This document shows, one piece after another, positions 1 to 50,801 of a DNA stretch of 64,000 nt (the first letter of the stretch is position 1; each line of letters opens with the position of its first letter). The stretch lies in assembly GCA_044892525.1 (NCBI GenBank), contig CM097885.1, positions 33,420,001 through 33,484,000 of the forward strand, in the 5' to 3' direction. A program made the position numbers and the translations under genes. This stretch comes from Schmidtea polychroa. Its lineage: Eukaryota. The notes beneath the pieces were generated by a model, which had not been told where the DNA came from, ran no database searches, and saw only the letters and a program-made list of their open reading frames with translations.

Positions 1-1060
1 TACAAATAAAATTTTTTCAATACAAAAATCCGACTACCACTAAAAAAGCATGGAATTTTCACACTATAGCGAGGGGGTCTCGATGGTCCTGGGATTTTCA
101 ATACAAATAAAATTTTTTCAATACAAAAATCCGACTACCACTAAAAAAGCCAAGGATTTATCAGACTATAGTGAGGGGGTCTCGATGGTCCTGAGAACTT
201 CAATACAAAAAGGTGGTCTACACTAAAAAAACGTGGTAAATTTTTTCAATTAAAGTAAATAATGGTTCTAAAAAATTAAATTACAGTAAATAATGGTCCA
301 AATTTTTCAATTAAAGTAAATAATGGTTCTAAAAAATTAAATAACAGTAAATTATGGTCAAAATTTTTCAATTACAGTAAATTATGGTCCTAAAAATTGA
401 ATTACAGTAAATTATGGTTCTATAAATCGAATTAAAGTAAATTATGGGTCTAAAAATTGAATTAAAGTAAATTATAGTCTAAAATTTAAAATTAAAGTAA
501 ATTATGGTCTAAAATTTCAATTAAGTAAATTAAGGTCTAAAATTTTCAATTAAATTAAATTAAGTCTAAAATTTTCAATTAAGTAAATTATGGTATATAT
601 TTTTAAACTTAAGTAAATTAAAGATAAATAAGCAAATTAAGGTCTAAAATTTCGATTAAGTAAATTAAGGTCTAAAATTTTCAATTAAAGTAAATTAAGG
701 TCCAAATTTTGAATTAAAGTTAATTAAGGGTCAAAATTTAAAATTAAAGTAAATTAAGGTTCTAAAAAATTAAATTAAAGTTAATTAAGGTCCAAATTTT
801 TAAATTACGTAATCAATGGTCAAATATTTTAAATAAGTAAATTAAATTAATAATTTTTAAATAAGTAATGTAATAAGCAAATTAAAGTAAGATTTTAAAT
901 TTATTAACAAAATAATAGAAGGTGTTTGAGAATTGAAATTTTTAAATGAAAATTTTTATGAAATAATTTTTCAATGAAAATTTTAAATGAAAACTTTTAT
1001 GAAATATTTTTCAATGACAATTTTAGAAAAAAAAATTTTTGAAATAATTTTAGATGGAAA
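1..1060. repeat. Left inverted arm of the pPolB element, built of tandem sub-repeats
   Basis: Outer units contain GGGTCTC..TGGTCCTGGGATTTTCAATACAAA. They are followed by many ~30-bp units of the form AATTAAAGTAAATTATGGTC-AAAATTT (~245-830) and then A/T-run units. Boundaries are approximate. Confidence 0.8.
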
Positions 1061-2283
1061 TTATGTAAATTAAGGGATACAATTTTAAATTAAAGTAATC
1101 AATGGTCTATATTTTAAACTTCTATATTCGGTAAACAAGGACTAAATTAAGTAAATAAAGGGTTAAATTAAAGAAAATTATGATTATAATTATAATTAGA
1201 TTTAAAGAATAATTACCTTTTCATTTAACACTACAGTGTTAATTCTTACCATTTTAGAATAATATTTTTTATCAAAGTTCTTATCTTGATTTATTTAATT
1301 TTAATTCAATTAATTTGAAAGATTATTTAGATACATTTTGGTGTTTAAGGTATTCATTAGTAATTATTTTTTAGAGTTGATGGATTTTGTGAATTTTTAT
1401 CATTTTCGTGAATTTCATGTGGATTGAATGAATATTAAAAAATTTTAAGTTAGTTCTAAGATAAATTTAATTAATTTCTTGATAATTGGATGCATTTTAA
1501 TTGATTAGTTTTTTAATTTTAAATAAAAATAATTTTTAATGACAGTCAGGTTAATAATCACGTGATAGGATATGACTTTGTAATAATATTTTTTTTCATA
1601 TATTTTCTAAGAATTTCATGTTGACTGATTAAAAGTTTTAATGGTGATAAATTTAATTGATAAATTTAATTAATTTCTTGATAATTTGTTAAATTTTAAA
1701 TAAAAATTAATTTTTTTTTAATGACTGTTAGGTTAATAATTAAGTAATTGGTTTAATTTTAGATGACTTTGTAATGCATTTGACTAAATAATTTTTTCAA
1801 AAATTTTCTAAGAATATTTACACATTGATGAACTTTTTTAAAAAAAAAACATCAGCTAAGAAATCAGTTAACCTTATCAAGAACTTTAAATTTACTTGAT
1901 AATTTACAGAAATAATATACAAAATTTAATTTACAGAAATAATTTACAAAATAATATACAGAAATTTATGATTAAGTTTGCTTTTATGAACAATCAATAT
2001 ATATCATCTCTAGTTAGGTATTTGATAGGTGAAATATTTGTAGTAAATAATAAGTTTATTATGTCTTTGTTACATAACTCGACTTTAGCGTCAAAATGTG
2101 TTTTTAAAATAAATTTTAATTTTAAAATACCGCAATGTAATATATTTTTCCCTACCCTTCCTTGATTTTGATTGGTTAGAATTTGTTTCTATAAACAATA
2201 ATAATCTATAAACAATAATCAATTATTAGTCACATTTAACAAATAGTTAACCTTTAAATATGAATTCTTTAATAGAAAACGTT

Positions 2284-5200
2284 ATGAATGTTCGAGAAAA
2301 AATTCAGGAATTTGGTAAATTTTAATTTATTTATTAATTAATTTATTAATTAATTTAGACATTATTAATGAAGACAATTTAAAATCGAAGATTAAAGGAA
2401 ATTTGAAAAGAAAAAGTAAACATAATTTTTAATTTATTGATTTAATTAATTAATAATTTAGGTAATACGAATAAAGAGAAAAATTATGTCAATGTGTCAA
2501 TAAATCGAAATGAAAATTTACAATGTAAGTATTGATTACTTTTTATAATTTAAAGAAAAAATAATATAATTTTTATTTAAGTAAATGTTAATATTTTTAA
2601 TTGAGTAAATTTTTATTCTTTAGTAAATAAAATTTGTAAAATAATAATAATTTGCAAATTTTTGCGTAAACATTTATTAAAATATTTCATTTAAATTATA
2701 TTTTTTTTTATTAAATTTTTATTTTATAGGTATACTTTATCCAAATTATTGTTCATCGAAAGAACATGATAATAATTGCCATTCTATAATGGAGAATTAT
2801 TACACGAAAAAATATTATAATAAAACTTATTTTATATGTCCCGTATGTAAGACTAGTGACCCTGTAACATATAACGTTTTTTATAATAAACATAAAAATC
2901 ACTTAGATAGGTTTAATTTTAAAAAAGATATTGTTTTTAAAAGACCCTCGACTATAGAAAAAAATAATACAAATAAAAAAATTAAATTAGATACTTCTTC
3001 TTTTGAATCCCAGGCTGGATTGTCTTTTGTTGAATCCCAGGACAGATTGCCTTTTGTTGAATCCCAGGTCGGATTGCCTTTTTTGAATCCAATGATGGAT
3101 TGGTTGTTGAATCCCAGGTCGGATTGCCTTTTTTGAATCCAATGATGGATTGGTTGTTGAATCCCAGGTCGGATTGCCTTTTGTTGAATCCCAGGTCGGA
3201 TTGGTTGTTGAATCCAATGATGGATTATTCACTTCCTTTGATTCTTGGGATGGATTAAATATAATACAAATAGGGGGTAATGTTCCCATAATACAAAAAG
3301 ATCTAAGGGGTACCCATCAAATATTAAGTTTAAATACTAGCGACTTAAATATAAAGGAAATAATATTTCCTGAACAATTAATTATAAAATTACGAGATAT
3401 TATTAACGAATTAGGCTCCGTCAAAATTCAATTCGGAATAACAATCGAATTTGAAAAAGACGGGGAAATAAAGGTTAATAATATCTCCAATTACGCAAAA
3501 CCTTTAACTGCATCATTTTTTGATGAAGGTATTAGGGAACTAAATGAGAAAATAACTAATATTACAGAGTTAGGAAGTAGTTGGATTATAAAAAATATAA
3601 CAGAAATCCACTTCACTATAACAAAAATAAGTAGGTTAAGTAGATTAAGTGGTAGGAGTTTCATTGAAACACCTACTTATCTAAAAAATAAATATTGTTT
3701 AATTAATATAAAAACACCGATGATTCATGTTTTTTATATAGCATTTTAGCTATTTTAAAATATGATGATGTTATTACACAATATAGAAATAGGACATCCA
3801 GTTATAATTCGACTTAGTATATAACCCGTTAGAATTACCCATGAAATTAAAAGACATTAGGAAATTTGAATCTAAAAATCCTGGCTTAATAATTAACGTT
3901 TTTTCTTATGATAATAGCAAACAATTAACAGATAATTACGTTTTAAAACATCCACATTTAGACATTATACATCGTTCCAAAGTTTTAAATGGAACTGTAA
4001 TTAATTTACTACTATTAAATAAAGGAAACAATTTCCATTACGTTGCTATAAGTAATTTAAATAGGTTACTGAATTGTGGTATCAACACTACTTGTCCTAC
4101 ACGCATAAAATCATTATGGTGCCATCGGTGTTTGAATGGGTTTAGGTATAAACACGCACTGGAAAAACATGAAATATTATGTAAACATAATCAATTAGGA
4201 ACAACTCTTTACACTTTCCCTCAAAATAAATTATTGCAGTTTACTGACTGGTCGAAAACAGTAACTCCTCCTTTTGTAGTTTATGCCGATTTTGAGGCTA
4301 TTTTACCTTCTGATAATCTTCATTTCTAACGACACATGCCAATATCTGCTGGTCTTTTACTTGTAAATAACTTTGACGGATCTAAATCTTATCAACAGTT
4401 CATATGTTTAGATTGCGTCGAGAGTTTTCTAAGTGCTATAGAGGATATAGCATTAAATAAGGTTCTTCCTTTTTATTATAAAATGAGTAGGAAACCTATG
4501 ATTAAATTAACGAAAATTGAACAACGTCAATTTGTTAGTGCATCTGTTTGTTATCTTTGTATGAAATCTATAGTCGATCCTGTTAGAGATCACGATCATT
4601 TTACGGGGAAATACTTGGGTGCAGCTTGTAGCACATGTAACATAAATAGGAAAATAAATAAAATTTTGCCTATCGTATTTCACAACTTGAAGGGATACGA
4701 TATGCATCATATACTTAAATACGGATTAAATAAATTTAAAAATTGGACTTTAGGTTGCATCCCAATAACGACTGAAAAATTTATTTCTTTGATTGCTCAT
4801 TTAGGCAAAATTAGCTTAAGATTCATTGATTCTTATCAATTTGTCAATGATTCTTTAGCTAAAGCAGTCAAAACTTTGAATTCTTTGCCTTTTACTAATT
4901 CTGCTTTTTCTGGCACTATAGTTTCTGAAAAAGGAATCTTCCCTTATAATTTCGCTACATCTTTAGATATTCTCCAAACTACTTATGAATTATCACCAAT
5001 TTGGGAGGGTGTCAATGAGCTTGAGTATGAAAAAGCTCAGGAGATTTGGGTAGAAACTAATTGCGTAACTTTATTAGATTATATGATGATCTACCTAAAA
5101 CTTGATTGTTTTCTTTTGGCTGATTTCTTTCATAAGTTTCGGTTGAAATCTATTGCTCACAATAGATTGGAACCATTGAATTATTTCGGAATTCCAGGTA

Positions 5201-6714
5201 TGTCTTGGTCTTCTGCATTAATGTCTTTAAATGAACCAATTGAGCTCATAACTGAAAACGAAATGTTTAGCTTTTATGAGGGTGGAATAAGAGACGGTCT
5301 TACTTTTGTGAATAAGCATTACGTAAAAACCGATGAGAACACCGAGTTACTATATATAGATATTAATAATCTTTATGGTTGGGCTTTAAGTCAATCATTA
5401 CCTTGTGGCGAATTTAGTTGGGTTCTTGATGGATTTGATTTAATAATGGATGAATGTAGGAATTTAAATCTTGAATCTTTGTCTTATGGATACACTCTTG
5501 AAGTTGATCTTGTAATTCCTTCTGAGCTTCATAATAAGTTGGATGATTTCCCTGTAGCTGCTGAAAAAATGAAACCTGCTGGGTCTAAGGTTGAAAAATT
5601 ATTATTAACTCATCTTCCAAAATCTAATTATGAGATTCATTGGAGATTATTAAAATTATATTTGGAACTTGGTGTTAAAGTAACACGTGTAAATAGGGGT
5701 GTAAGATTTAAGCAATCTCCAATTTTTAAAAAATATATAGATACAAATACAGAATTAAGGTCAAAAAGCATAAATAACTTAGATAAAATTTATTATAAAT
5801 TGTTAAATAACAGTTTATACGGCAAAACAGTTGAAAATTTAAAGAGAAGAATGAATCTTCGTCTTTGTACAACTGCCGGTAAATTGGTTAAATATTCTTC
5901 AAAACCGACTTTTAAAAAATCTATTAAAATAGATGATAATTTAATCGCAGCACTATTGAATTCAGATTCTATATGTTTAGATAGACCAAGTTACATTGGT
6001 CAATCTGTACTTGATCTATCTAAACTTAGAATGTATGAATTGCAATATAAGGATCTGGAATCATTTCGCAATGAGTTTAATTGTAAAATTAATATCGTTG
6101 CAGGTGATACAGATTCTTTTTTCCTCGAAGTCATTAACTGTAAACTTGAGGTTCTTTTACCTGCAATGATTCGAGATAATTTATTAGATACTTCCAATTA
6201 CAATAGTTGTCATTCCTTATATAGTAAGAACCTTGATTCTGTCATTGGAAAGTTCAAAGACGAGAATAAAGGTCTTAAATATAAGGAATGGGTTTTTCTT
6301 AGACCTAAATGTTATAGCTTGTTGGGTGATGAAGAAACAAAAAAGGCTAAAGGTGTAACATTGAAAGGTAGTGACATAAAACATCAGTCATACCTGGATT
6401 GTTATAACACTAACCAGATTTTTTCGGTTCCTCAGACTAAAATAACAAGCAAAAATCATCAAATTTTTACAATTAAAAACACAAAAATAGCACTTACTAA
6501 CAAAGATGACAAAAGGGTTTGGGTGGGGAAAAATACTAGTCTTGCATATGGGCATGTAAGATTAAGTGAATTAAATATTGGAGAAATTGTTGGAGAAGAA
6601 TTTGATGAAAATGTTGGAGAAGATGAGGAAGAATTTAATGAAGAAGATTTTGGAGATTATGTTGGAGAAGATGATATCGATATCGATGACGTTATTTTGT
6701 CTGATGAGGACTAA
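2284..6714 (+). pseudogene. polB: Protein-primed family B DNA polymerase (Polinton/adintovirus-type pPolB), disrupted by frameshifts and a stop
   Basis: ORFs 2789-3136, 3150-3749, 3841-4329 and 4336-6714 join into one protein. Motifs: ExoI YADFE, ExoII FHNLKGYD, RFIDS, KGIFPY, ExoIII YLKLD, motif A YIDINNLYG, motif B KLLNNSLYGK, motif C GDTDS. Lesions: frameshifts at ~3083, ~3133, ~3712 and ~3806, and an in-frame TAA at 4327-4329. The start at 2284 depends on predicted splicing. Confidence 0.93.
2998..3225 (+). repeat. Coding minisatellite (24/27-bp units; VESQVGLPF / VESNDGLV) in the pPolB N-terminal region
   Basis: Repeated GTTGAATCCCAGGTCGGATTG and GAATCCAATGATGGATTG units; 3071-3120 and 3121-3170 are identical 50-mers. 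Confidence 0.92.
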
Positions 6715-6722
6715 TTTTATTA

Positions 6723-6728
6723 AATAAA
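6723..6728 (+). terminator. Putative polyadenylation signal of the pPolB gene
   Basis: AATAAA begins 9 nt after the stop codon and is followed by GT-rich sequence (TTGTTATTTGTTTGG). Confidence 0.5.
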
Positions 6729-6844
6729 AGTTTATATCTATACATTTGTTATTTGTTTGGTAAAGTTTTATATTTGTTATGTGTCTAGTTCATTTTTATG
6801 TGTTTAGTTAATTTTTTATGTGTTGTAGTGTATTTGGTTGATAT

Positions 6845-6857
6845 ATTATTATTATTA

Positions 6858-6949
<92 letters not shown>

Positions 6950-6950
6950 T
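6845..6950. repeat. (TAT)n microsatellite
   Basis: Direct inspection; it explains the spurious poly-Y and poly-I ORFs. Confidence 0.97.
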
Positions 6951-8154
6951 CATAAAAATTTTCATTAAAAATTATCTTAAAAATTATTCTATTAAAATTT
7001 CCATTAAAAATTATCATTGAAAAATATTTCATAAAAATTTCCATTAAAAATTACCATTGAAAAATATTTCATTAAAATTTCTATTAAAAATTACTTAAAA
7101 ATTATTCCATAAAAATTTCCATTAAAAATTACCATTGAAAAATATTTCATTAAAATTTCTATTAAAAATTACTTAAAAAATTGTTTCATAAAAATTTCCA
7201 TTAAAAATTACCATTGAAAAATATTTCATTAAAATTTCTATTAAAAATTACTTAAAAAATTATTTCATAAAAATTTTCATTAAAAAATTTCAATTCTCAA
7301 ACACCTACTATTATTTTGTAATTAAATTTAAAAATCTTACTTTAATTTACTTATTTAACTTTAATTTTTTACCATTGATTACTTAATTTTAAAATTTGGA
7401 CCTTAATTAACATAATTAATTTAATTTTTTAGAACCTTAATTTAGTTATTTGGACCATTATTTACTTTAATTTAATTTTTTAGGACCATAATTTACTTTA
7501 TTTTAACTTCTTTAGAACCATTATTTACTTAATTTAAAAATTTGAACCTTAATTTACTTAGTTGAGCCCTTAATTAACTTTAATTTTAAATTTTGAACCA
7601 TTATTTACTTTAATTTAAAAATTTGAACCTTAATTTAGTTATTTGTGCCCATTCATTACTTTAATTCAAAAATCTTAGCCCATAATTTACTTATTTAGAC
7701 CATAATTTACTTTATTTCAAAAAAAATCTAAACCTTTATTTACTTAAATTTCATTTTTTAGACCCATCATTTACTTTATTTTTAAATTTTAGACTCATAA
7801 TTTGCTTTATTTTAAAAATTTACTATGCGTTTTTAATGTAAACCACCTTTTTCTATTGAAATTCTCATGACCAAGAAGATCCCCTCACTATAGTCTGAAA
7901 AATCCATGCTTTTTTATTGAAGACTACCTTTTTCTATTGAAATTCTCAGGACCAAGGAGACCCACCCAAATAATATTTATCCTTGGCTTGTTTATTGAAA
8001 AAAAAAATTTGTATTTAAAATCCCAGAAAACATTGGACATTACGGCAACAATTATGTAATCAAAAAATGTCTACGGGAAAAGTTATGCAATCAAAAGTTT
8101 GCAACATTTTTACCCCCCCCCCCTATTGTTGCCGTAAGCTCCTAACTACCTACT
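6950..8154. repeat. Right inverted arm of the pPolB element
   Basis: Reverse-complement versions of the left-arm sub-repeats (e.g. GACCATAATTTACTTTAATT, GGACCAAGGAGACCC), an ~80-bp tandem unit at ~7020-7290, and the terminal CTAACTACCTACT. Confidence 0.82.
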
Positions 8155-8257
8155 TTTAGCTAAAATATTTTAACATTAACAAAGTGTTATTTTACACATA
8201 TGACAATTGGACCAGAAAATTTTGTCCATTAATTTGAGGATTAATAATATATATATT

Positions 8258-8420: not shown

Positions 8421-8478
8421 GAATTTAATGGATAAAATAATCAATGGTGAAATTGGAAGAAATCAAAGTTCTTATAAT

Positions 8479-8630: not shown

Positions 8631-9227
8631 ATAAAATGAAAATTAATTATAATTATAACATTTCCCAAAGTAGATAGATAAATTTCTAATTGATATGAAA
8701 ATTATTGTCTTTGTATCAAATTTCAACTTCAACTGGTTTTAGCAAAATAATTTTTTAAGTTATTTATTTATTTATTATTTCAACTATTTAATTTTTCATA
8801 AATTTAAATCGAATATTTAGTTAAATTCGATAATTTTAATTTGAATTTGTTTGTAATAAAATTTATGATATTCACCATTGATAGAAAATTGTTAATTTTT
8901 TGATCGAAATATAAAATTTATAAAAATTAATTTATCAGTAAAACTTTTTATTATTTGTTAATATTTTATCTGTTTTCTATTTTCGATGATATTTTAAATA
9001 AATATTAAAAATAAAAATAAAATTTATTTATTTAATTTTATAGAAAAAATAATTTTATTGATAAAATTGTTTGTTATTGGGTGCTGAGCCTGCCCATAAT
9101 TTTCCCGACTTGTGAGTCTGAACCTCTCTTTCGGGATACTTATAAACATTAAATTTATTTAGATTTTGACAAATGATAAGTTTTCTTTCCTTATTTAACC
9201 CACATTTTTCGGAACTGTGGTACAGTT

Positions 9228-9406
9228 TATAGGTAGTTAGTAGCCACCCCCTCCCCACAGCACGACAATCCATTGCATCCCCACCCTTAGAAAAAAGTTT
9301 TTTAATTGCTGCCTAAGGCTACATTATATTTGTAGAAATTCACACTATTGAACTAATTGAATTTTTTGTACTCAAAATCCAGCGCAGGGGCTACAAACTA
9401 CCTATT
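9228..9406. mobile_element. 179-bp miniature element with Polinton-like termini and a 6-bp TSD
   Basis: Left end TATAGGTAGTTAGTAGCC, right end GGCTACAAACTACCTATT; flanked by the direct repeat ACAGTT (9222-9227 and 9407-9412). Confidence 0.78.
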
Positions 9407-9591
9407 ACAGTTAAAGTCGCAAAAATTTGAAAACCCCTCTACGTTATAAATCGATTTTATTTTTACTTTTATAATTAAATATTTACAAAATCTTATGAAA
9501 AGAAATCTTGATATTGAAATTAAAATATGCAAAGAACTGCTTGAAATTATAAATTTTGTCACTAATTTATTTATTAAATTTCAATATGCAG

Positions 9592-10237
9592 GTAAACCTA
9601 TTCAGTGTTGGGTACCCCAACAGTTCACAAAGTCATGGGAAGAATATGCAGAAAACCTTTGCTGGATACAAAGCACTTATAAACTTCTTGACAATGAAGA
9701 TATACCAGAAGATGATTTTGAAATTCATTCTCTAAAATATATAAGTTATTATCAGTGGGTGGCTATTGTTATGGGAGGCCAAGCCATAATGAGTTATCTT
9801 CCTCATTTGATTTGGAGATTATGGTCTAAACGGTTGCCTATTCTTCTAAAGACTGCCCGTGAAGCCTCTATTCCAGATCGGGAAATGAGAACTAAAGCTA
9901 TTCAGTGCATTGTAACAAAGTTAGAAGAAGGCACTGAAGCTCAAATCAGGTATCGACGAGGTGAACCAGGAATATTTACCAGATATGTTTTCTTTTGTTT
10001 CAATCCATCAACTAGATTGACAATTCTATTTCTTTTTGTCAGAACATTATTTATTTTAAATAATATTGGACAGATTTATCTAATGAAAAACTTTATCAAA
10101 ACTAACAACACTTGGTTTGGAATTAAAGTAATTTCCGATCTTTTAAAAGGTTATGAATGGAAAGATTATGGGAACTTTCCTCGAATTACATATTGTACGA
10201 TAAATGTCAGAAAGTTTGGACAAATTAAACAAGCGAG
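9592..10237 (+). CDS. inx: Innexin (gap-junction/hemichannel protein), internal coding exon
   Basis: Translates as GKPIQCWVPQQF..WEEYAENLCW, the innexin signature YYQW, a Pro in TM2 (YLPHLIWR) and FPRITYC. Acceptor ...TGCAG at 9591 (phase 1), donor AG|GTAAAT at 10238 (phase 2). The paralogue number cannot be assigned. Confidence 0.93.
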
Positions 10238-13200
10238 GTAAATACTTTTACTACAAGAACATAATGATAAAAAGTAATTAAAATTATAAACTGTATTTTT
10301 ATTAGTTTTTATATTTTTTAATGTTTAATGTAATATATGCACTTTTTATATACTAATATGTAAGGATTCTCTTCATACTCAAAGCTTATATCCCAAAGTA
10401 CCATTTTACTAATCAAAAATTTCAAAAATTTAAATTTAAAATTTAAAATTAAAAAAATTAAAAAGTTATAATCATATTTCTAAAAAATGGGTATTTTGAA
10501 TCAAAAATCTTAAAATCCACACCATAACCCTTTACTCAAATTAATTTAATTCTCAACCCTTTCATTAATTTTTCATATTTAAAAACTTTAAATGGTAAAC
10601 AGCCGCTGGAAAGACTTAAAATGACCAGTCGTCACAAAATAAAGTAAAATGATTGGAAAAACTAAAAATGGTCATAAATTGTTTGTAGTCACATAAAAGT
10701 ATTAAAGTGTTCATCATGCAGTATAAAATGACAAGAGTGGTCGGGAGTATTAAAAAGGGGTTATCTCTCAAATAAAATAGAAAAATTGAAAAAATGATAA
10801 AAAGGACAAATTAATTTTTATTTTCTGAAATTTATTTTACAATATTTCAGTAATATCAGTTTGAGTTGGTTTGCTTTCTGCTTTTACGAGCTGAATATCC
10901 TCTCGAACAAAAAAAATGTTATCATTAAAATCAACTTGCTTGAGTTGCCAAAGAAACAAATAAAAAGATTTACAAAAACAAATAATTTATACAATGTTTT
11001 CTTTTTCATTTAAATTGTTCTGATTTCAAATTAACAACTTCTTTTCTGTTACAAGGCGCGGATTCTATATAATTTATCTAAATAATTTTATTATATAGTT
11101 GATGCGAGTTCCCAAGGCATCCACTTCTTAAACGACAGAAAAGTTTACTTTTAGTAAGCTTATTCGGAGTGATTCATCTGTCGCTATGATATGATTTAGT
11201 GGTCGGCAAACATTTTTAAGCCGAGACACAATTTATTTTTTCACAATTTAAAGAGGTATCAAAAACATTTATTTAAATTCATTTTTAAAAGGTTAAAAAA
11301 ATATGAAATGACAGAAAACATAAGACTAAAATCGTATTACTCTTTATGTAAGGTTGAAAATCAAAGCGATGTATGTAGCTAAATAGTGGAGAGGCGAACC
11401 CTGAACCCCTGATCAATGTCAATTAACCTTGCACGTTTAATCGATTCAATGCTTGATAGTATAGTTGACTGTACAAACTCTTACATAGAAAATGAAACAT
11501 CTAATCAAACAAAATCTCAAAAAATGATATGATAACATTCATTGGAGCATGTTAGTTTATTGGACTATTTAAAGGTAAAAACATGGTTATCGGTAGATTT
11601 TGATTTTTAAAGTATGGTAAAACTATAATTTCAAAATTGATCTGAATTAATCACTTGTGTTGGTAATTAATTAATATATGTTCATGGCGAACCAGTCAAA
11701 AGCAATCCCTAACGAGTTCGCATGTTATTTTAACTTGTATGAGTAAGTCATGAACTACAATATATAACTTTTTGATGGAATAGCCAGCTTAGCAAAGTTC
11801 GCACGACATCCTATTCACGTCATTCTAATGTATTTTATTAAAATAAATTACATTCTGTCAATAATTGCTATTAATTTAATTATTCCAAAAATAAAGGAAC
11901 CGAAAGGATTGTATGTATATGCCATCCATTTGGATTAAACCAAATATTTAAGTCATTTGTTTGATTTAAAAATCCTTTTACTTTTATTAATTTTCTTTAA
12001 AATTTAATATAAATATTAAAAAAAAATTTAAGTTATAATTTCAGGAAAAATATACTCAAAATATATTCAATTCAAATATTGAATAATAATTAATAATTAT
12101 GTTGTATTAATGAAATATTTTTTATTATGAAATATAAATCAATTTTGGAAATATTTTATAAAATCCTTTTAAATCATTTATTAAAGATAACATTTTAACA
12201 AATAAAAGTAAAATTTCTATTAATAATTCTGACAATTAAAAAAACTTGTTCTATTTAATTTAATTTTAATTTGTTTAATTCTTATACATGAATTAAAACA
12301 TGAATTAATCGCAAATAACTACATTGAATTTCAATGAATTTTTTTTTTGATTGACAAATTAATAATTAAATTAAAATTTATTGAATCATTTTTTTAATTT
12401 TAAAATGTCAAGAGATTTTGCTTAAAATGCAATATATTATAAAACTCTTTAAAACAAAAAAATAAAATTGATAAAATTACTGATATTGTGTCCATTATTT
12501 GCATTCGAAAGTTCACGACATTTGGTTAAACATAATTTATTATTTTTATCATTTAAATAAGAAAATATGAAAATATTTTTCGTTTTCAAAGATTTTATTA
12601 AATTTCTTTGATTGCTGTATATATGTTTCATTTTTCAGTAATATCATGTAGCTGTCAATTTCATGGAACATTTGTAATTTTTTTAATTATTTCAATGATA
12701 AAACGCCCAGTAGTAAAGAAAATGATTCCTGATCGCCATTCAATAATTTACATTCTATCTGTTGACATTTTATTATAACGCATAGTTTTACATTTAGCAG
12801 GCGTAAATGTTGTAAATAATATTGAAGCAGACATTTCTAGTTGCAATGCAAGCCCAAAATGAATACTTTCTTCACTCTTTTGAACATTTTATTTACTTTG
12901 AACAACCTTTGTTAGGTAATATTTTTAAATAATTTTCATAAATTACTATAACATATACTAAAATGTACTAAAATGTATAATAAAATGTATTACTAAAATT
13001 ATATCCTCTGCTTTTAGTGATCAATAAAAATGAATTTTGATTGTAATAAAATTACGAATCTTGTTGAATAATTAATTAATTAACATTTTGTTTAATTAAA
13101 TTAGATATAGGACAATGGCTACAATTAATATTTCGAGAATTAATTAAAATCAAAAGAACCCGATTTTAGTAACTGCTTTTATAATTCTGTCTAATAAACT

Positions 13201-20797: not shown

Positions 20798-22785
20798 TAA
20801 TAAATGCTGATACCAAGAAATCATCACTTTTTACTATTATATTTATTATAATATTAAATTATTATTTCTAAGGAAAAAATAGAAACATTTCATATAACAA
20901 TAACTCATGGTTTAAATAATTAATTATTGTTTCATTGAAAATATTTTGAATGTGAATATCATTAAAAATTCAAAAAAAAATAATTCATTTATCTCAAATT
21001 TAATTTTCTTTGTTATAAATCAACGTAAATTGGAAATAAATATTCATTTTTAATTTTTCATCTAATATTATGATAATTATAATAATAATAAGAATAATTG
21101 TAATAATAAATGAGGACAATAGAATTTAATTAATAAATAAACAGATAAAAATATCGAGAGTCATAAGAGGAATTATAAAATTGAAAACAATAATTTTTTA
21201 GAAATATGAGCTAGAAAGTGTAAAAGAAATTATAAAAAATAAAATAATAAATTAACGGAAAGTATAATGGAATAGAAAGTAGGTTGAAAACAATACAAAA
21301 GACGAATATCGTGGCCTCTCAAGTTAATTTTGATGAAGATGAAAACTGTGATAAATCCAAAATATTTATTTCCCAAATTAAATATTCAAATTTCTATAGA
21401 ATTTGTATAATTATGAAGTGGAAAATAAGAATAGACTCTTAGAGACAATTTAAAATCATAGTAGCACTTAAAAGAGAAACAAGTGACAACAAAAATGAAT
21501 ATAATAATTATATAATTATTAACAATATGAAAAGTCGGGAAAAGAAGGTTAATTATAAAGTCAAAAAAGTCAATTATATATAAGTTTCACTTAAATTCAT
21601 CTCTCTAGTGATAAATATTTCCACATTTAGTCTTAATAACATCAAATTTTAAACCAATATTGTAATAATTGTGCATTGAGTATTATACAAAATGTCCATA
21701 AAGTTCATGTTTAAAATTAAAAATACTTGATGGCATTTCTGAAAATAAGCTCGAAAATATTTTCTTTTAGTACTAATAATACATGGTGGACATGTTGAAA
21801 ATTAATAAAAACAATAAAATATTTAAGTATTTCTTCTTTATTTTGCTTTTTACAGATTCTTTATATTGCATATGGTTAGTAAGTAGTTATTGGGGTGCTG
21901 CAGAAATTTTTTTGGTCAACGGTTACGGAACTGCTGCAGTGTGCCACACTTATTTTTTCTGGGATTTTCAAAACAAAAAGGTCCTATAGAAAAAATGCCA
22001 TGATATTTCTGACTATAGTGAAAGGGTCTCCTTGATCCTTGGATTTTCAATGCAAAAAAGGAGTCTTCAATAAGAAAGCATGGTAATTTATGGTCTTAGG
22101 ATATTTTCAATACAAAAAATAGGTCTTTAATAAAAAGCCATAATATTTCTGACTATAGTGAAGGGGTCTCGATTGATTCAAGGATTTTCAATACAAAATT
22201 CAAATTTCGATAAAAAAGCATGGGAATTCAAGGTCGCAGGATATTTTCTATACAAAATCCGACTATCACTAAAAAAACATGGATATTTCTAAATATTATT
22301 AAGGTGGGTCTCCTTGGTCCTGGAATTTCCAATACAAAATTCAATCTTCGATAAAAAGGCATGGTAAATTAATGAAAAATAGGTAAGTCAACATTTTTAA
22401 ATTAAATTATATTATGGTCTAAATTTGAAATTAAAGTAAATTATGGTCTCAAATAAGTAAATTAAGGTCAAAATTAAGTAAAGTAAATTAAGGTACAAAT
22501 TTTTAAATTAAAGTAAATTAAGGCAAATTTTATTAAGATAAATGGATAAATTAAGGTTAAATTTTTAAATTAAGTAATGAACGGTCTAAAATTTTAAATA
22601 AGTAAATTAAAGTTAAAAATTTTAATATTTTAATATTTTAAAATTAAAGTAAATTAATGTAATAAGTAAATTTCAGTAAGATTTTTAAATTTATTAACAA
22701 AAAGTTAAAAAAAAACCACTAGCTTTTGAGAAATAAAAGTTTTTATGAAATAATTTTTAAAGATAAATTTAAATGTTAATTTCAA

Positions 22786-22804
22786 TCATAATAATAATAA
22801 TAGC

Positions 22805-22890
<86 letters not shown>

Positions 22891-40385: not shown

Positions 40386-42297
40386 TCATTAAATAAATAC
40401 TTAGAATTATGTCGTTAACTTTTGAACACCTCACAGATTTAAATAATAAAGAGAAAATATTTAATTATCAAACAATTCTTTTAATCTAATCCAAAGTGCT
40501 AATTTTCTCATAAACCTTTTATGGTGATAAAAATACAATAAATTAAAAGCCAAGAGTTAGTTTTTGAATTAAAAGATTTAGGTTAATATTTAATTTTAAA
40601 AGTTTTATTACAATTTTAACAACATGCATTGCAATAAACTAAATTTTAAGAGACGTCAGTTAGAAAACATTAGCATTATAATCAGGCAAATTGTACGTCC
40701 CAATTTATGCAACAATTAATCAACAATGATTCTTTTCAATGCAAATCTGAAAATATTTTTAATTTTAAAAATCTTGTCTACTGCTTTTATGTTTAATTTA
40801 TATTTTGTAACTTATTTTGTTTTCTTTAGTAAAACATTATCATAATAAAAAGTTAGATTTGCAGTGAAATTAATTGTTTTTTATTATTTGTTGCAATTCA
40901 AATTTTAATTAAAATAAATTATATTAATGAATAGAATGTAAAATTATTATTTTAACAGTATTTCCGGATTCCTGATATCCAGTATCGTCTGATTTCTTGA
41001 ATGATATGCTAGAAATATGTAAATTTTAATTCATTTTCAGCCTTGAAAATGTTGAAGATTATTTTAAATTTGAAAGTTAAATATTATCCAGTAAAAATAT
41101 ACATAATTAATTGAATTGTATACGGATATTATGCCAATTACTACTAAAAGGTAATTATTTAGAGTTGGATTGAATAAGTTGTAAATAAATCTTTTAATTT
41201 GAATCATTAGAAAACATAAAAATAATCTTCGAAAAAATCTTATAATATTATAAAAAACTATTATGAATTTATAATGAAAATATATTCTAAATATTAAGCA
41301 AAATAAAAATGATGATTAAGTAACAATTGGTGTGAAAAAAAGCACACTGAGGTGCATTTTTTATAGTAAATATTTTTTTACAAATATTGTGCCCAATAGT
41401 GCTTTCATAAACTCATTGTTAACTTCTTTGAAAGTTTGCAAGTCTGTTGTTGAATCTTTCACTGCTTTTGCTGTTATGTTATATAATAAATTCAGTCACT
41501 GGCGTCTAAAGCCGTAATCAAAGTTTAATATTTAAATTACACAAATTTTAAATAATAACACAATTTTAGAAAAAAAATTTTTAAAATTATTTTCAACGAT
41601 ATTTAAGTAAAATAAATTTTTGAAAAATGAAATTAATCTTCTTATCAAGGTCTGATGTTATAAATGTAAGTAAATCATTTTTCAGCATCGTGATCCGTTT
41701 AGAAATTGAATAATTTTGCAAATTAATCCATAGGCTGAAGGATTACATTTTTTAATTATTTTATTCTGATCGTTGTTGAAATATTTTTTTATATTTATTA
41801 TAATAATTACAAGTTTTTCAATAAAATTAATATTAAAATTCAATCGATTGTTTCTAAATGTTTCAGCGTAATTGGGTTTAAATGCACAACTTAAATTACA
41901 ACTTGTTATTGAAAAATTCGAAAGTTTTTAACCCTTTGAAGGTTATTAACCTAATAAAAATCTTCGGGGTTCTGACTAAAATTTACCTCTAAATGACCTC
42001 TAAATTACCTTTTGAATGAACTATTGTTCAAAAAGATCCATTGGTGGGAACTCAGAAAATTGAAACCTTCAAATTTTTCAAACCTTATAATATATATATC
42101 AAACAAAAGATATACTCTGAGTTTATCAGACAAGATAATTTGGATATTGCTCACAAGGGTCACACTCAACATGTCGTAAGTTATTTTCAAAGTTTAATTA
42201 TTATTATTTTTTTACTGGGGGTCCCTATAATGAACAAGTACCAATATTTATTTTGTCAAATGAAAATAAATGAAATATTAGAATAAAATACAGAGCA

Positions 42298-44980
42298 ATG
42301 ATGACCAAATATCATAAAGCAGATTGTTTATTGGATACAGGAGCACGAATTAATGTGATGGCTAAATCAGTAACTGATCGATTAGAAAATATCGAGATAA
42401 TAAAAACAAGTGAATCGCTAAGATGTGCAAACAACAGTAGATTAGAAACTATGGGTAAAATAAACATCTATGTTAAAAGGGGCGATAGTGAAATAAATGT
42501 AACATTCATTATAATAAGGAATATCATACAAGAAATTATCGGAGGAGTAGAACTACAAAGGTTATTTGGTATAGAATTGAAATGTATACGAGAAGAAAAT
42601 GGAAAACGTAGTGATTTCATTTGCGAAATAGAAGCTAGATTATGGCGGATTATAACAGATGAAGAAAGATTACGTCATGCCATCTATGTTTTAAAGGTTA
42701 CCAGAAATAAGAGACTGTTAGAAATATTTCAAGCAACCAAGAACGTTTTCATGGCAGATAAATGGGATATTGGGTGTACCAATCTGATTAAACATAAGAT
42801 CATCACGAAAGGAGAGCCAATAATGATTAAACCGAGACGTCAACCAATAAATTTGGAAGACAAGATTGAAGAAGCTATAAAAAATCTAGAAAACAACAGA
42901 ATAATTAAGAAGTTTATTTCACCGTGGAACACAACTTTAGTTTGTGTATGGAAGAAAGAGAAAAAAGACATCAGGTTTTGTCTAGACTTTAGACAATTAA
43001 ACAAGATAACAGAAAGACAAGCATTTCCAATGCCAAATATTTTAGCTCGATCGACTTGGGAAATGCTTATTACCAAGTGAAGCTATATAAGGAATCTCAA
43101 GAGAAAACACCATTCTCAACAAAAGAAGGACAGTTCTGTTTGAACATGATGCCGTTCGGTATAGCAGCGGCACCAGAAACATTTCAAGAATTAATGCCGA
43201 AAGTATTGAAAGATTTGTTGAAAGATGGAAGGATGATATATTTAGACGACATACTAATATTGACAAAGACAGAAGAAGAACACTATAACGTATTTAGAAG
43301 AGTTCTAGCGAAGATCTTAACAGCAGGACTAAGATTGAACTCCGATAAATGTCAAATATTTAGGAAAGTGAAGTTAATAACGAGGCATACAAACTAATCA
43401 TACTAAGATAGAAGCAATACAATCATTTCAAAAGCCAAAATGTGTAAAGAATCTGAGGAGCTTTTTTGATATCTGTAACTATTATCAACGGTTCATAAAA
43501 GACTATACAAAGAAAGCAAGAGCACTAGAAAGCATATGCGGAAAAAACAATGAGAAAATAAGATGGACAGAGATGTGTGAAAAGGCTTTCGGGGAAATAA
43601 AAGAAGCATTGGTAACCGCCACAGCATTGGTATTTCCAGACTTCAGAAAAGAATTTATATTAGACACAGACGCAAGCTTCGATAATATTGGAGCAGTTCT
43701 TTCGCAAAAGAATGAAAAAAGGACATGAACATGTCATTGCATATGGTTCACATGTGATGAGCAGCCACGAAAAAGGATAATGCATTACCAGGAAAGAATT
43801 ATTGGCAATATGTACTATTTTTGTAAACATTTCAACCATTACTTATATGGGAAAAGATTTTCACTGAGAACGGACCATAAAGCGATTACGTTCATGGTAA
43901 CAACGAAAAAACCAATAACTGCTCAATTCCAGAATGGATCAACTATTTAAGCAGTCTGAATATTAAAATGGAATACAGGAAAGGAAAAAGCCATACAAAC
44001 GTGGATATGCTATCCAGGAAAACATGCAGAATATGTGTACAGTGTATGATGGAACACGATGATCCAAAAACCGGCAAAATTAAAACTAGAATATTAACAG
44101 TAACAACAGAAGGCGGATATAACAAGTGGCGAAATGACAACGTGGAGGTCCAAGAAATAAAGAATAAGTTAAAAATAAAGATTGTAAATTCTTAATGGTA
44201 CACGGTACTAACTAAGCAAGGTACAATATGGATACCATCAGATAATAGACAGAATATGATAAAAGAAGTGCACGTATTGCTGTGCTATGCAGGTACACAG
44301 AAAGTAATTGAGGATTGAGAACTCCGAAAGATGTCAGAAAATGAAAACGATAACAACCAAGACAAAGGAGGAAACTCAAACAGTAAAGAGTACTGAACCA
44401 TTCGAGAAGATATATATGGACATATGTGGGCCATTGAAAGAAATGTTCAATAAAAAGAAATATATTTGCGGAATCATTGACCATTATAGTAAATACATCT
44501 CATTAACGGCCATAAACAAGCAAGACGAAAAATGAATTAGTGAGACTTTATTAAATAGATGGATATTAAAGTTTGGAGCTTCAACAGAACTTCATGTAGA
44601 TTGTGGGAAGAACTTTGAAGCAAGAAGTATTAAATAACTAGCAAAGGCAGTAATCGTCTCAAGCCCATATCACCACAGCACGAATGGTATAATTGAAAGA
44701 CAGTTCAGAACAATCAGAGAGTATATTAACGCATCATCGAATGAAGGAGGAAGAAAAATCTGGGCTGATTTAGTACCAGAAATAGAATATACTTTAAATA
44801 CAACAGTTCAAAAAACAACGGGAGTAAGTCCAGCAGAGATTATATTTGGAAAGAAAATCAACATAATGAAATGGTACACGAATAAAGAAATAAATAGAGA
44901 GGATATGGAAAAGAGAATAGAGGATAAAACACTAAAGCCAAACGGAAGCAAAACAATGAGAAACTTTGAAATGGAAGATA
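42298..44980 (+). pseudogene. Ty3/Gypsy LTR-retrotransposon pol remnant (protease-RT-RNase H-integrase)
   Basis: LLDTGA (protease); SPWN, RFCLDFRQLN, MPFG and YLDD (RT); LDTDAS and LRTDHK (RNase H); PFEKIYMDICGP, IIDHYSKY, HVDCG and NGIIERQFRTI (integrase). Many stops and frameshifts; no flanking LTR pair recognised. Confidence 0.93.
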
Positions 44981-45815
44981 TCACTACGAAGTTTTAAGTG
45001 AAGTGCTGGATAACATTGAAAAGGCGGGTCTTAGGATAAACCCTGAAAAGTGTCATATCCTTAAAGAGAAAGTCAAATATTTTAAGTCACATAATCAACA
45101 AAGATGGAATACAGACGGATCCGTCAAAGCTAGACCCGATTAAATCATTTGGATAGTCAAAATGTGTTAAGAATCTGAGAAGCTTCCTAGGAATATGCAA
45201 TTACTACAGAAGATGTATAAAGGAATACGCAAAAAAGGTAAGAGGTTTAGAAGAACTATGCGGGTTAAATAACAAAAAATTAAATGGGACTGACGGATGC
45301 AACATCGCATTTGAAAATGTGAAAAATGCTTTAATGTCTTCACCTATTCTAGGGTTTTCAGATTTCTAAAGAGAATTCATTCTGGATACTGATGCGAGTT
45401 TTGACACGATTGGGGCAGTATTATCACAGAAAGACGACAACGGGTGCAAAAAGGTTATAGCATACGGTTCTCATTTACAGGTTGTTCATTACAGGAAACA
45501 TTCAGAAAGAAAAGATATATAGACACTAAGATTGATCAATTTAGCAGATATATCTCTTTGACTGCAGTCGCTAAACAGTATGAGGAAACGGTGAAGGAAA
45601 CAATACTACAAAAATGGATTCTTAGATTTGGAGCACCAAAGGAAATTCACACAGATTGTGGAAAAGTATTTGAATCTAAGACGATGAAAGATTTTACAAA
45701 ATCAATGGGAATTACACTATGCTTTTCAAGTCCATACCACCATAATACAAATAGTGTGATAGAACGTCAATTCAGGACAATAAGAGACTATTTAAATGCA
45801 TCATTAAAAGAAAAA
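44981..45815 (+). pseudogene. Second, more deleted Gypsy pol remnant fused directly downstream
   Basis: Restarts at the end of RT (HYEVL..AGLRINPEKC), then LRSFLGICNYYR and LDTDASFDTIGAVLSQ, then jumps to the integrase core (IDQFSRY, IHTDCG, VIERQFRTI). Confidence 0.88.
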
Positions 45816-46563
45816 AATTTGCAATTTAAGTATGAATGTGGTATGTTGACGGTAAGTTGATATATTTGGTTGAAATTAAAATTTATAAAAAGAAAATGTC
45901 CCAAGAATATTTGTTTATATAAGCAGATTTAATGAAATATATTTTTGGATTTATTTAGTTTGAGTAATTTATTTGATGACAGAATAATTGAATGTTATAG
46001 CATCTAACATTTCTGATATTCAAACTCTTAATAATGAACATAATAATTTTGATTAATACAGTTTTGCTCAATGAATTGTATAATGGAACTACATGAATTG
46101 ACATTTTAGACAAAAATGAATGTACAATGTACAATTAAAGATACAGACTTTGAATCTTTAATCAGTAACTATATTATAACTTACTTTAATATTCCCGTTA
46201 AATTTCCTTTAAATTGTACGAATAAACTTTAAAGTACAAATATGATTCGAAATTCAAAATACTAATAAAAAATAATGGATAAATATGAATTTAATTGTAT
46301 TCGTAGAATTCGGTTTTTAACGAAATATTTCTATAAAATAATATATAAATAATATAAATAAATCTACTAAATTTTGTTAAGATAATGAGTTAAATGATGA
46401 TATTTTGAAGAATTTATCAATCACGTTTTTAAAAAGTTTATATTCAAAGTATCTTGAAAGCTTTCTAGAAAATCTTTGTAATTTATCTTTTGATGTATTT
46501 GAAGCCTTTTCTTAAAAATTTCTAAATTCATATTTATTTGAGCTATTTTATTAAAAATGCATG

Positions 46564-49500
46564 AGTAGGTAGTTAGTTGCCTACTACAACAATTACCCCG
46601 CGGGGGGGGGGGGGATAAAATTGTTGCAACTCGGTTTTTTGCTTTTTTTACTTAATTTTTGCAGTGGGCTACGCTTATTTTTTCTGGGATTTTCAATAGA
46701 AAAAAATATTTTCAATACAACTGCTTTTTGATACGTAATTTTTGCAATAAGCTACACTTATTTTTTCTGGGATTTTCAATATAAAAAAAATCATATAGAA
46801 AAAAAGGCAAAGATTTCTCTGATTATAATGAAGGAGTCTCCTTGGTCCTGGGATTTTAAATACAAATATCAAAAAAGCATAGAATTTTCTAAGTAAATTA
46901 AGGTGGGTCTCCTTGGTCCTTAGAATTTCAATACAAAATTCAATTATCACTAAAAAGCATTGGTGAATCAGTCAAATTATCACAAATAAAGAACTTTGAT
47001 AAAAATATTATTCTAAAGTGGTAAGCAATTGTAGGATAAAAATGAAAGGAGAATTATTTTTTCACAAAATTTGATAAAATTAACAATATTATACTCATGT
47101 GGTAAGAATCTTCATTAAAGTGAGGAAATTATTCATTACTCTATGATAAATTAATTAATAAATTCAAAAGGTTGAATTATTCAAAGTGGTAGAATTATTC
47201 ATTAATGGATTATGGGAGATAAATACTGAGAAGGGGCATAAAAATATTTTATAAAAATGATCACTTTAATAAAAATATTTAGTACAATTTTAAAAGAAAT
47301 ATTTGCGGGGGTGTGGAATATAGGTGATAATAATTAGTGGAATATCGTGGAATATAAGTGATTAATTAATGGAAAATCGAAAATCGGGGAATATAAGTGA
47401 TAATAATTAGTGATATATCAAAAATCGTGAGGGCTATAAGTGAGGAGGACAGATAATTAAAGTTATTTTTAATATATTACTATCGAATAAAAATATTTTA
47501 ATAACGCGTTATTGATAGACATTTATTCTGATAAAGTGTTTAATCCTCAAATGACTATTTTATTACATAACAAACTGTGACTATTTTATTATATAACAAG
47601 CTGTGGAAGATATTTTAAAATACTAATCTTTAAAGACAAAAATATTTCAGGGTCATTTGATACTTTTCAGATGATTTGATTGGATAATTCGCTTGGATAT
47701 AACAAATTTTGTCAATTAAATGAATTTACGGGTTTATTAGATGTTATCATTAGTGGTCTTATATCAGTCTCTTTTGGAATTTAATGATAATTTCTTTTTA
47801 GTGTAGATTGCCGAATTTGATAATTATAATGAATTTATACTGATTTTTTTGAATTTATTAAGCAATCAGTAAATCAATTTGAGTACATGTATTACTTTTA
47901 AAAAAATAATTAAAATTAATTTATTCAATCTAAATCAATTTTCTACTAGATCTTATTTTAAAATTCTTATTAATTTATTATTTTAGTTGTTAGTATCTAG
48001 TTAATGGGTATGTGGGTGGTTGAGTGTGACCAATACCCTTACAACCAGTACCCTTAGGAAGTCAAAACATCCTGTCGGATAAACTCAGACTATATATATT
48101 AAAACGAATCAACAATAACTATTTATTGAATGCAATTTTTACTTTGCAATAGTAAGTCAGTAGTAATCAATTAAAATAAGATTGTTTTGTGAATTAGAAT
48201 TAGAATTCTATAGTCTTTTATTGTAATTTAAATTATCCTCAATTCCACGTGGTGTTTTAAAGTGTTTTAAAATTATTCATTTTTTGATGAAAATCATCAT
48301 TTTTGTTAAATTTAGGCACTTAGAAAAGGTTTTTCTACTGATTTTAATTAAAAATATTTTTGAAGACTAATAAAAAATTAATTTAAAAAGCATTTGCTAA
48401 AATGAATAATATTTAGTTGATTGTAAGTAGTAAGTTGTAAGTATGTAATTGTTTGAGAGTTAGTACTAGTACCAAGTTGGTTGCTTGTTGTTGGTTGTTA
48501 TTATATGGTATCATGTTGTAAGTATTCGGTGATTATTTATTTGCACTTAGTTAAAAATATTTAGTAGCCGGTAGTTGGTAACAGATTGTAAATAATGCCT
48601 AGATAGTAATTGTTAGCTATTTGTTAGAAGTACATAGTTGTTAGTATTTGGTTGGCTTTTTAGATTTTGACAAGAATATAAGAAATAATCTACTTGTTGA
48701 ATTAAGAAGAGCTTATTATAAGCAAATACTTGATGAAATATTTTATTAAGTCTTTAATTGTTATTATTTTATCTGTAGGTATGCGGTTGTTAGTACAAGG
48801 TTGTTAGTCCTTGGTAGCTAGTTGTAAGTACTTCGTAGCAGGTATCTGGATATAAGTACTTGGTTGTTTTGAGTACTTGGTTTATGAATTATTATTACTA
48901 TTATATTATTATTATTATAATCATTATTATTATCATTATTATTTTTTTATTATTATTATCATTGAAATTTGCATTTAAAATTATCTTTTAAAAATATTTC
49001 TTACAAACATTCATTTTAATTTGACTTTAAAAATTAACTTAAAAAAATTAGATTTCTCAAAACGTTTGTGGTTATTCAATCTTTTGATAATAAATTTAAA
49101 AATTATTCCTTTAATTTACTTATTTAAAAATTATTACTTTACTTTTTCAACTTTAATGTAATGTTTTAGACCATTGATTACTTAATTAAATATTTTGGAC
49201 CTTAATTTACTTTAATTTAACCCTTTATTTACTTAATTTAACTTTTGTTTACCAATTATTACTTTAATTTACCTATTTATCCTTGTATTACTTAATTTAA
49301 CATTTTACAACATACTTTACTTAACAACCGATAACCCTTATTTACATATTTAACCAATAATTTCATGTAGTGAATGATTAATTGACAAAGATTTGCATCT
49401 AAAATTGACTCTGAAAATTATTTCATTAAAATTTTCATTTAAATTTGAATTTAAAAATTATTCCATAAAAATTTCCATTAAAAAATTGCATTTCTCAAAA

Positions 49501-50768
49501 ATATTGGTGGTTATTCAATCTTTTGATAATAAATTTAAAAATCTTACTTTTTTTTTTATTTACTTATTTTAAAAATTATTACTTTAATTTACTTATTTAA
49601 CTTTAATTTAAAAGTTTAGACCATTGATTACTTAATTTACAAATTTAAACCTTAATTTACCGTATTTTAGCGCATATAACGCGTGCGGTATCTGATTACA
49701 ATAAACAATAAAACCGATGGTAGGGTTACTGTCACATCATAAAAATATTTCCACTGGCAATGCCGCCACGTGTAAAATATAAATCATAAAGCGCGCACCC
49801 ACAGATACCGCGCATGGGGGGTGCACGGTTTGTAAAAATGCGTATAACGCGCGCGTTATATGCGGTAAAATACGGTACTTTAATTTTTAATTCTGGACCT
49901 TAATTTACCTATTTGAGCGCATTGATTACTTTAATTTAAAAATCTAGACCTTAATTTACTTTAATTTTACATTCATACCATAATTTACTTATTTGTACCC
50001 ATAATTTACTTTAATTCAAAAATCTGAGCCTATTATTTACTTTAATTTAAAAATTTGAATCATTAATTAATTTAATTCAAAAATTTAGACCATAATTTAC
50101 TTTATTTTAAATTTTTAGGCTGTAATTTACTTAGCTTTACTTAATTGAGCCTTTAATTTACTTTAATTTAATTTTTTAGAGTCTAAAATTTAGACCATTG
50201 TTTACTTAATTCAAAAATCGGAGCCCATAATTTACTTTAATTTAAAAATTTGAACCTTAATTAACTATAATTTAAAATTTTAGAGCATAATTTAATTTAT
50301 TTCAAAAATTTACCATGCTTTTTTAGTGTAGACTGGTATTTGTATTGAAAATCCCAGGACCAAGGAGACCCACCTTAAAAATATTTAGAAAAATCATTGC
50401 TTTTTTAGTGAAGACCACCTTTTTCTATTGAAATACTTAGGACCAAGAACCTCATCTTAATTTACTTAGAAAATTCCATGCTTTTTAGTGATAATTGAAT
50501 TTTGTATTGATAATCCCACGACCAAGGAGACCCACCTCAATAATACTTGGAAATATCCATGCTTTTTAAGTGTAGACCCTTTTTGTATTGAAAATCCCAG
50601 GACCAAGGAGACCCCCTCACTATACTCAGAGAAATAATGGCTTTTTTCTATAGGGCCTCTTTGTATTGAAAATTTTATTTTGTATTGAAAATCCCAGAAA
50701 AATTTAGTGTAGCTTACTGCAACAAGTACGGGGGGAGTATTGTTGCATGGATCTACTAACTACCTACT
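46564..50768 (-). mobile_element. Non-autonomous Polinton-like element, 4,205 bp, perfect 6-bp TSD
   Basis: AGTAGGTAGTTAG at 46564 and CTAACTACCTACT ending at 50768; TGCATG at 46558-46563 and 50769-50774. Same arm sub-repeats as the pPolB element. Internal segments are reverse complements of parts of 1130-1282 and 23145-23400. No coding ORF. Confidence 0.92.
49660..49875. mobile_element. Tc1/mariner-pogo-type MITE nested in the Polinton-like arm
   Basis: TIRs CCGTATTTTAGCGCATATAACGCG and CGCGTTATATGCGGTAAAATACGG with a TA duplication; removing it restores the arm unit CCTTAATTTACTTTAA. Confidence 0.88.
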
Positions 50769-50801
50769 TGCATGGTTAGCAGAACTTCTTTTATAAATCT
50801 A

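Follow-up and report, generated by a model that had tools for sequence, protein, structure and literature searches.

Defective Polintons in an innexin gene of Schmidtea polychroa and their probable origin from helper-dependent fold-back palindromes

[quoted passage not shown] We analysed a 64,000-bp stretch of the AT-rich, 781-Mb genome of Schmidtea polychroa (G000:C1:33420001-33484000, forward strand; hereafter the window), in which an initial annotation had described four Polinton-ended elements (E1–E4) around one gene. We consider it probable that these are defective members of an active Polinton family, that three of them represent lone arms or the decayed remains of fold-back palindromes, and that helper integrase acts on them in trans. 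The helpers are of a known Polinton kind; what is new, within the literature searched, is the whole-element palindromic derivative.

Repbase holds short non-autonomous Polintons. Adenoviruses replicate by a protein-primed, strand-displacing mechanism, and in the defective genomes called delta-Ad.IR or snap-back genomes a short inverted-repeat cassette, internal in origin, comes to lie centrally, with a copy of the same genome end on either side. According to the accessible text of PMC4189039, adenovirus vector genomes that are shorter than 75% or longer than 105% of the wild type rearrange in the direction of wild-type size, and direct and inverted dimers of a 15-kb vector were packaged. For Polintons, the available parts of 10.1101/2024.01.15.575659 describe Caenorhabditis elegans loci with pPolB and TIRs and no integrase, with palindromes unmentioned there; those of PMC3014272 report no non-autonomous copies in the anole; those of 10.64898/2026.07.28.741278 describe only 52-nt terminal palindromes in a protist; and those of PMC8532177 present planarian Polintons as piRNA targets. 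The excerpts available of PMC3185507, PMC13027316 and PMC12721341 contain nothing on whole-element palindromic Polintons, and we found no description of such elements in the full-text literature searched, with supplements, Kapitonov and Jurka 2006 and Repbase/Dfam lying outside that scope.

Complete Polintons with the same ends as the window elements are present in this genome. Tracing outward from 18 capsid-anchored groups gave seven copies covered to both ends, 16.7–17.9 kb long, flanked by exact TSDs and carrying matches to PF03175 (pPolB) and rve (integrase) together. Most of the 18 groups run on into pPolB, and two full and one partial capsid palindrome are also among them. The gene order is TIR, small open reading frame (ORF), TBP-like gene, ATPase, pX-like gene, integrase, two minor-capsid-like ORFs, core-like ORF, major capsid, protease, an optional RING ORF, pPolB and TIR, the TIRs being imperfect and about 1.6–2.1 kb long. 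Further Pfam matches are Pox_A32 (A32-like ATPase) and Peptidase_C5 (adenain-like protease). The capsid sequence found no match in a search against the PDB, but a fold search with its structure model (pLDDT 92.5) did, the best matches being double-jelly-roll capsids (PBCV-1, an iridovirus and mavirus; E 4e-15). Two paralogous ORFs of 338–344 aa, without a Pfam match, lie at the position expected of the minor capsid, and by that position they are putative minor capsid genes. Complete copies thus combine pPolB and integrase, ATPase, protease, a double-jelly-roll capsid, TIRs, AG...CT ends, 6-bp TSDs and a length within 13–25 kb; measured against the published definition in the portions cited, they are ordinary members of the animal (adintovirus-like) Polintons. 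All 102 capsid matches scored, out of 4889 candidates, showed 100% rounded identity, so there are at least 102 such genes. Judged from sequence, the family is active, with young complete copies, many of them near-identical.

The presence of a young, complete Polinton with the same ends makes mobilisation in trans the plain reading for the copies that lack an integrase, as the initial annotation had proposed, and the complete 17-kb copies are the likely suppliers of that integrase. It also disposes of the idea that the termini belong to a cut-and-paste DDE transposon that captured a polB fragment: the same ends bound complete Polintons, and that identity is ruled out.

Several features of the helpers deserve separate mention. 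A short TBP-like gene (PF00352, E 5e-16; L084:880-1392, minus strand) lies head-to-head with the ATPase in complete Polintons. In every listed copy the integrase (L084:2610-3770) is split into two ORFs by a short GT-AG stretch, likely an intron. The minor-capsid-like paralogues stand in tandem (L084:3770-5810, L094-L097), and a fused form is common to both capsid-module palindromes, whose centres differ. In some complete copies protease and polymerase are separated by an additional RING-finger ORF of 382 aa (L092:7923-9068, minus strand). Diverged Polinton genes with 40–84% identity (L124:1-2400, L122:33-860) adjoin the main family; their sequences point to a second Polinton family, perhaps the origin of the AGTAGAGTAG-ended mini-element described below.

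The very high copy number foreseen for the family was borne out. The exact terminal 13-mer occurs 1582 times on the plus and 1581 times on the minus strand, against 13 and 14 for a reversed control, with C-type ends counted at 1218/1241 and G-type ends at 357/342. Using exact matches to the end patterns, we drew neighbouring plus/minus pairs from the first 100 listed places per pattern. Fifty-nine pairs lay within 60 kb; the 7 above 25 kb were dropped, and among the 52 kept, 41 span 12–18 kb, 10 are shorter and 1 is longer. Paired ends carry 6-bp TSDs genome-wide, a property whose absence had been named as refuting the proposal: at 50 pairs inspected outside the window the duplication was exact in 43, near in 3 and absent in 4, one further pair having been excluded from the tally when its left end proved internal.

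The derivatives inspected are mostly whole-element palindromes with their own TSDs, and they are gene-less, polymerase-only or capsid-module-only. Their arms, 4–8 kb long, make up nearly the whole element. These relatives outside the window have the snap-back structure, in which one genome end is mirrored around a short centre and both termini are intact. Twenty C-type pairs of 12–18 kb in the first 26 Mb of C1 comprised 17 gene-less palindromes, 2 complete elements and 1 partial capsid module. G-type pairs are palindromes with two diverging pPolB genes, or have the same frame with pPolB lost. The capsid/integrase module is doubled in two palindromes, of which the 16.5-kb one has an exact TSD at both ends. 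Ten gene-less palindromes were covered to both ends, and nine have exact TSDs and one a TSD offset by three bases. They show no match to 13 family proteins, their longest ORF is 172 aa, and four of their ORFs gave no convincing Pfam match in a search that leaves room for spliced or very short genes. A rough extrapolation from the C-type and G-type end counts puts the giant palindromes at some hundreds to about a thousand in the genome. Published TIRs of animal Polintons measure 100–1500 bp in the sources available to us in part, whereas the arms here extend over nearly the whole element and can contain two copies of the polymerase or of the capsid module; in the C-type sample palindromes outnumber complete copies by 17 to 2.

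Three side observations concern individual derivatives. An 8.2-kb TSD-flanked deletion copy (L039, C1:8291964-8300115) retains the capsid module, and its protease reads into the last pPolB codons. In one polymerase palindrome a pPolB gene is broken by roughly 5 kb of inserted sequence that includes an ORF resembling parvovirus NS1 (PF01057, E 1e-12; L040:8100-10000 and L041:1-3200). At L042-L045 (C1:9092710-9134844) two polymerase palindromes are adjacent, and the mirrored flanks of the second are identical to the right flank of the first.

The window elements can be placed against this background. All four lie where the initial annotation had put them, except that E1, given as 1–8154, keeps its right end there and begins 280 bp ahead of the window, at G000:C1:33419721. 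E1 is a single-polymerase defective Polinton on the plus strand, 8,434 bp in full, with a C-type left end and a G-type right end (8120–8154, minus strand) of the kind typical of polymerase palindromes. Its right duplication, TTTAGC at 8155–8160, is an exact copy of the one ahead of the window and adds a fourth duplication to the three noted earlier (window duplications are given on the plus strand). A PF03175 match (E 1.7e-27) confirms its pPolB gene, which is broken (2834–6714, plus strand), with frame breaks near 3076–3159, 3671–3713 and 3808 and one in-frame stop at 4327–4329. Window positions 243–8154 align colinearly, at 88% identity, with one arm of the N-centre palindrome L107/L108, and a full C-type left TIR stands where that palindrome has its centre, which gives E1 a monomer form.

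The other three are shorter. E2 (9228–9406, 179 bp) is a relic of an older subfamily, flanked by exact ACAGTT duplications (9222–9227 and 9407–9412), and its 12 other matches have 68–82% identity and partial coverage only. E3 (21878–25418) consists of left subterminal repeats and pieces like the inner arm of gene-less palindromes, with a right terminus of only about 28 bp; its duplications, ATGGTT (21872–21877) and GTGGTT (25419–25424), agree at 5/6 positions. Inside it lies a solo-long-terminal-repeat-like insertion of about 1.2 kb (23620–24817, plus strand; TGTTG...CAAC), which has dispersed relatives with TGTTG...CAACA ends. E4 (46564–50768), between exact TGCATG duplications (46558–46563 and 50769–50774), is a deletion remnant of the gene-less palindrome type, made up of a short left end, the inner part of one gene-less arm and most of the second arm, interrupted by deletions, at 67–85% identity. 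At window composition a duplication match by chance has a probability of 0.001 for 6/6 and 0.014 for at least 5/6. E1, E3 and E4 have subterminal repeats and internal non-coding sequence in common, as first described, at about 65–85% identity. The AG...CT ends attributed to the elements are right for the family; in E2 and E3 the ends are degenerate and not AG...CT at both sides. With helper-type ends, TSDs and no intact integrase, the window elements are non-autonomous Polintons, as the earlier description of integrase-less members of this family had it. Their TSDs show that an ancestor integrated at each site; they do not show that any element moved at its present length. By their alignments, E3 and E4 are decayed remnants of the gene-less palindrome type, and the window is an unrepresentative sample that shows the family's decayed tail.

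The right ends of E2 (9382–9406) and E3 (25393–25418) are the same rare variant. The exact pattern matched only these two places, and its AG form has zero genome matches. The pattern was built from those two ends and is partly circular, so we do not take it as proof of a local jump; a local relationship between the two ends is possible from their sequence.

The initial annotation had seen in these short copies a system of miniature inverted-repeat transposable elements (MITEs) and a helper, in place of the usual 15–20-kb Polinton, so that short, internally deleted copies would be the amplifying units. E2 looks the part, being 179 bp long and having its two ends and an exact TSD, elements of about 1.0 and 1.5 kb occur among the relatives of its end type, and the short right end of E3 is seen once elsewhere. 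Yet only 1 of the 59 neighbouring end pairs is under 2 kb, and the genome candidates scored (13 and 40 each, hence lower bounds) included none nearly identical to E2, E3 or E4, so the homogeneous copies of a MITE are lacking. E1, E3 and E4 measure 3.5–8.4 kb, leaving E2 alone as MITE-short (below about 1 kb, non-coding, with TIR and TSD), and the mini-elements that are abundant are passengers at palindrome centres, not free insertions. The derivatives resemble known non-autonomous, MITE-like Polintons in having no integrase, ends in common with an autonomous helper and preserved TSDs; they differ in that what amplifies is a palindrome of nearly full length, while the short window copies are unique and diverged. 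With complete copies many and near-identical, and most derivatives being 12–18-kb palindromes, the MITE-like picture was not sustained and we regard it as rather unlikely.

The centres carry much of the evidence on how the palindromes arose. Polymerase palindromes pivot on a nested mini-Polinton that is flanked by inverted, not direct, sequence. The mini-element of X-centres is 0.6–1.3 kb long, has AGTAGAGTAG ends and gave 114/116 genome matches; that of N-centres is 0.2–0.3 kb long, has the ends of the main family and gave 58/67. Among the matches listed, one flank is common to 30/30 and 29/30 centre mini-elements, and where both ends are in view the flanks are mostly mirror images. Because the flanks are the same in nearly all listed matches, each centre arose once and then spread with its palindrome; for the same reason we rejected, for these matches, the reading of the mini-elements as free MITEs. 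We chose 40 further centre loci along C1–C3, 20 of each kind. Two diverging pPolB genes in inverted arms were present at 18 of the 20 X-centre loci, which lie on C1 and C2; the N-centre loci comprised 7 with two pPolB genes, 8 palindromes without pPolB within the 10 kb covered and 5 partial cases. None of the 40 had a capsid or integrase gene. In the gene-less class, a homologous centre of about 1 kb was found in 11/21 stretches tested.

These recurrent centres bear on two other explanations. Palindromes might form in the chromosome after insertion, by break-induced fold-back or gene conversion between arms, and owe nothing to element replication. The arms of one element are indeed more alike than copies at different loci: inner arms agree to at least 99.5% in 10 of the 14 gene-less palindromes (mismatched in the other 4), for 7 of those 10 no other sampled copy exceeds 93%, and ongoing chromosomal conversion could give the same pattern. 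The same centre and flanks, however, recur at dozens of unlinked loci with differing TSDs, host flanks are not mirrored in the TSD-bearing cases and the arms of some copies are only 80–93% alike, all of which makes an origin after insertion improbable. Long-read assembly artefacts would explain the several palindromes with arms 99.8–100% alike, and the mirrored flanks of L044/L045. They would hardly produce distinct host flanks with exact TSDs, arms that are 80–97% alike with substitutions in many copies, or shared unique centres of 0.2–1.8 kb that differ between loci, and we give artefact very little credence as a general explanation.

In a tree of 42 natural pPolB segments, both arms of an element clustered together for 10 of the 12 elements with two arms. 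The X-centre sequences make up a tight clade (synonymous divergence, dS, 0.006), and their frames are open in the region tested. The ratio of nonsynonymous to synonymous change (dN/dS) was 0.10–0.19 in all pPolB comparisons, with small counts within clades, and 0.12 between X-centre and complete copies; by this measure pPolB is under purifying selection. Such selection would suit a split, bipartite Polinton whose polymerase and capsid/integrase palindromes complement each other like genome segments, and both halves do exist as TSD-flanked palindromes with open frames (L035/L036; L096/L097, 16.5 kb). Complete elements are nonetheless common among the capsid-anchored loci, so that complementation is possible and not required; as the sole explanation a bipartite system is ruled out by the complete copies, and in any form we think it decidedly unlikely.

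We therefore return to fold-back palindromes of a helper-driven family, for which the following route may be proposed. Polinton-type replication is presumably protein-primed and strand-displacing. Displacement would free single strands, and with the help of a short inner inverted repeat a strand that is being displaced or extended could fold over onto its own arm and use it as template, giving a second copy of one end. The product would retain two good origins and two integrase substrates; it could then replicate as a lineage, its arms kept alike by copying one from the other, and be inserted into the chromosome by the integrase of a helper. Later decay would account for most short forms, E3 and E4 among them. 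In the least certain step, a capsid packaging limit would keep the length near 17 kb. Delta-Ad.IR and snap-back genomes have a comparable central inverted cassette; in the present family a nested mini-Polinton forms the pivot, and the resulting palindromes have spread to hundreds of positions in the chromosomes.

Length is the main argument for packaging. Within 75–105% of 17 kb fall 17/20 gene-less and 15/21 G-end elements, the largest of these being at most 17.7 kb. Faster copying alone should favour short forms, so the kept length argues for size selection, and by analogy with adenovirus, four lineages that have converged on the length of the helper are suggestive of a packaging limit. We did not use a binomial test of length clustering as evidence, the copies not being independent. 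Helper-dependent adenovirus vectors, in the portion of the literature cited above, offer a likeness in replication class and in the size range; they are engineered and non-integrating and their packaging has been shown, whereas the elements here are natural and integrated with TSDs, and packaging is inferred. Tentatively, and with somewhat less than even confidence, we propose several natural lineages of defective interfering mirror-image dimers (gene-less, polymerase-only and capsid-only), each held at helper length by a size-selective capsid at every jump. If this is true, the genome is a fossil record of particle-borne movement of Polintons even inside a single host. So far gene content has been almost the whole basis for inferring how Polintons replicate and form particles; a packaging limit together with strand-displacement fold-back predicts just such gene-less elements that stay at 13–18 kb and half-genomes that double to this length, which makes both ideas testable in an animal with a young, abundant Polinton family. 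The giant palindromes also matter for repeat annotation and assembly, and are possible sources of hairpin RNA.

A number of observations weigh against this account. Since the end patterns were exact matches, the sample of ends is weighted to young copies and old short ones are undercounted. Short TSD-flanked members do exist (2.3, 5.8, 7.9, 8.0, 8.2, 8.7 and 9.4 kb), and the recurrence of the short E3 right end at one other locus means that some short forms may have moved as such. E1 may have arisen by recombination between a palindrome arm and a C-type end; it could equally be an ancestral monomer. Only about four lineages are independent for the length comparison. The pPolB genes of two N-centre palindromes nest among those of complete copies, so the polymerase-only elements are not one closed lineage; their position points to recombination of these two palindromes with helpers. 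The flanks of L044/L045 are inverted over at least 90 bp, and this palindrome may reflect an assembly artefact, a local duplication or a larger local inversion. Short-read contigs (4 runs, 2 studies) cover arm and centre, with no single piece spanning the structure; RNA data sets are absent from the listed runs with matches, which has no bearing on expression. Neither replication intermediates nor free linear forms nor particles were observed.

The gene around which the elements lie is a host innexin gene on the plus strand, whose closest named relatives are flatworm innexins. Its first exon (L031:4059-4211) lies about 5.8 kb ahead of the window, exon 2 (PF00876) at 9582–10238, and the last exon, which ends an intron of about 43 kb, at 53346–53759. 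From these positions all four elements are intronic to this one gene, E1 and E2 in intron 1 and E3 and E4 in the 43-kb intron 2. The window has other decayed elements besides. Broken ORFs at 58659–59941 are reverse-transcriptase-like and presumably Penelope-like, the tested piece having no Pfam match. Broken Gypsy-like pol remnants lie at 42274–45860, with a weak aspartyl-protease match and with putative reverse-transcriptase and integrase motifs. An innexin intron also holds, at 32860–34092, a Helitron-like fragment with a piece of PIF1 helicase (PF05970, E 7e-39).

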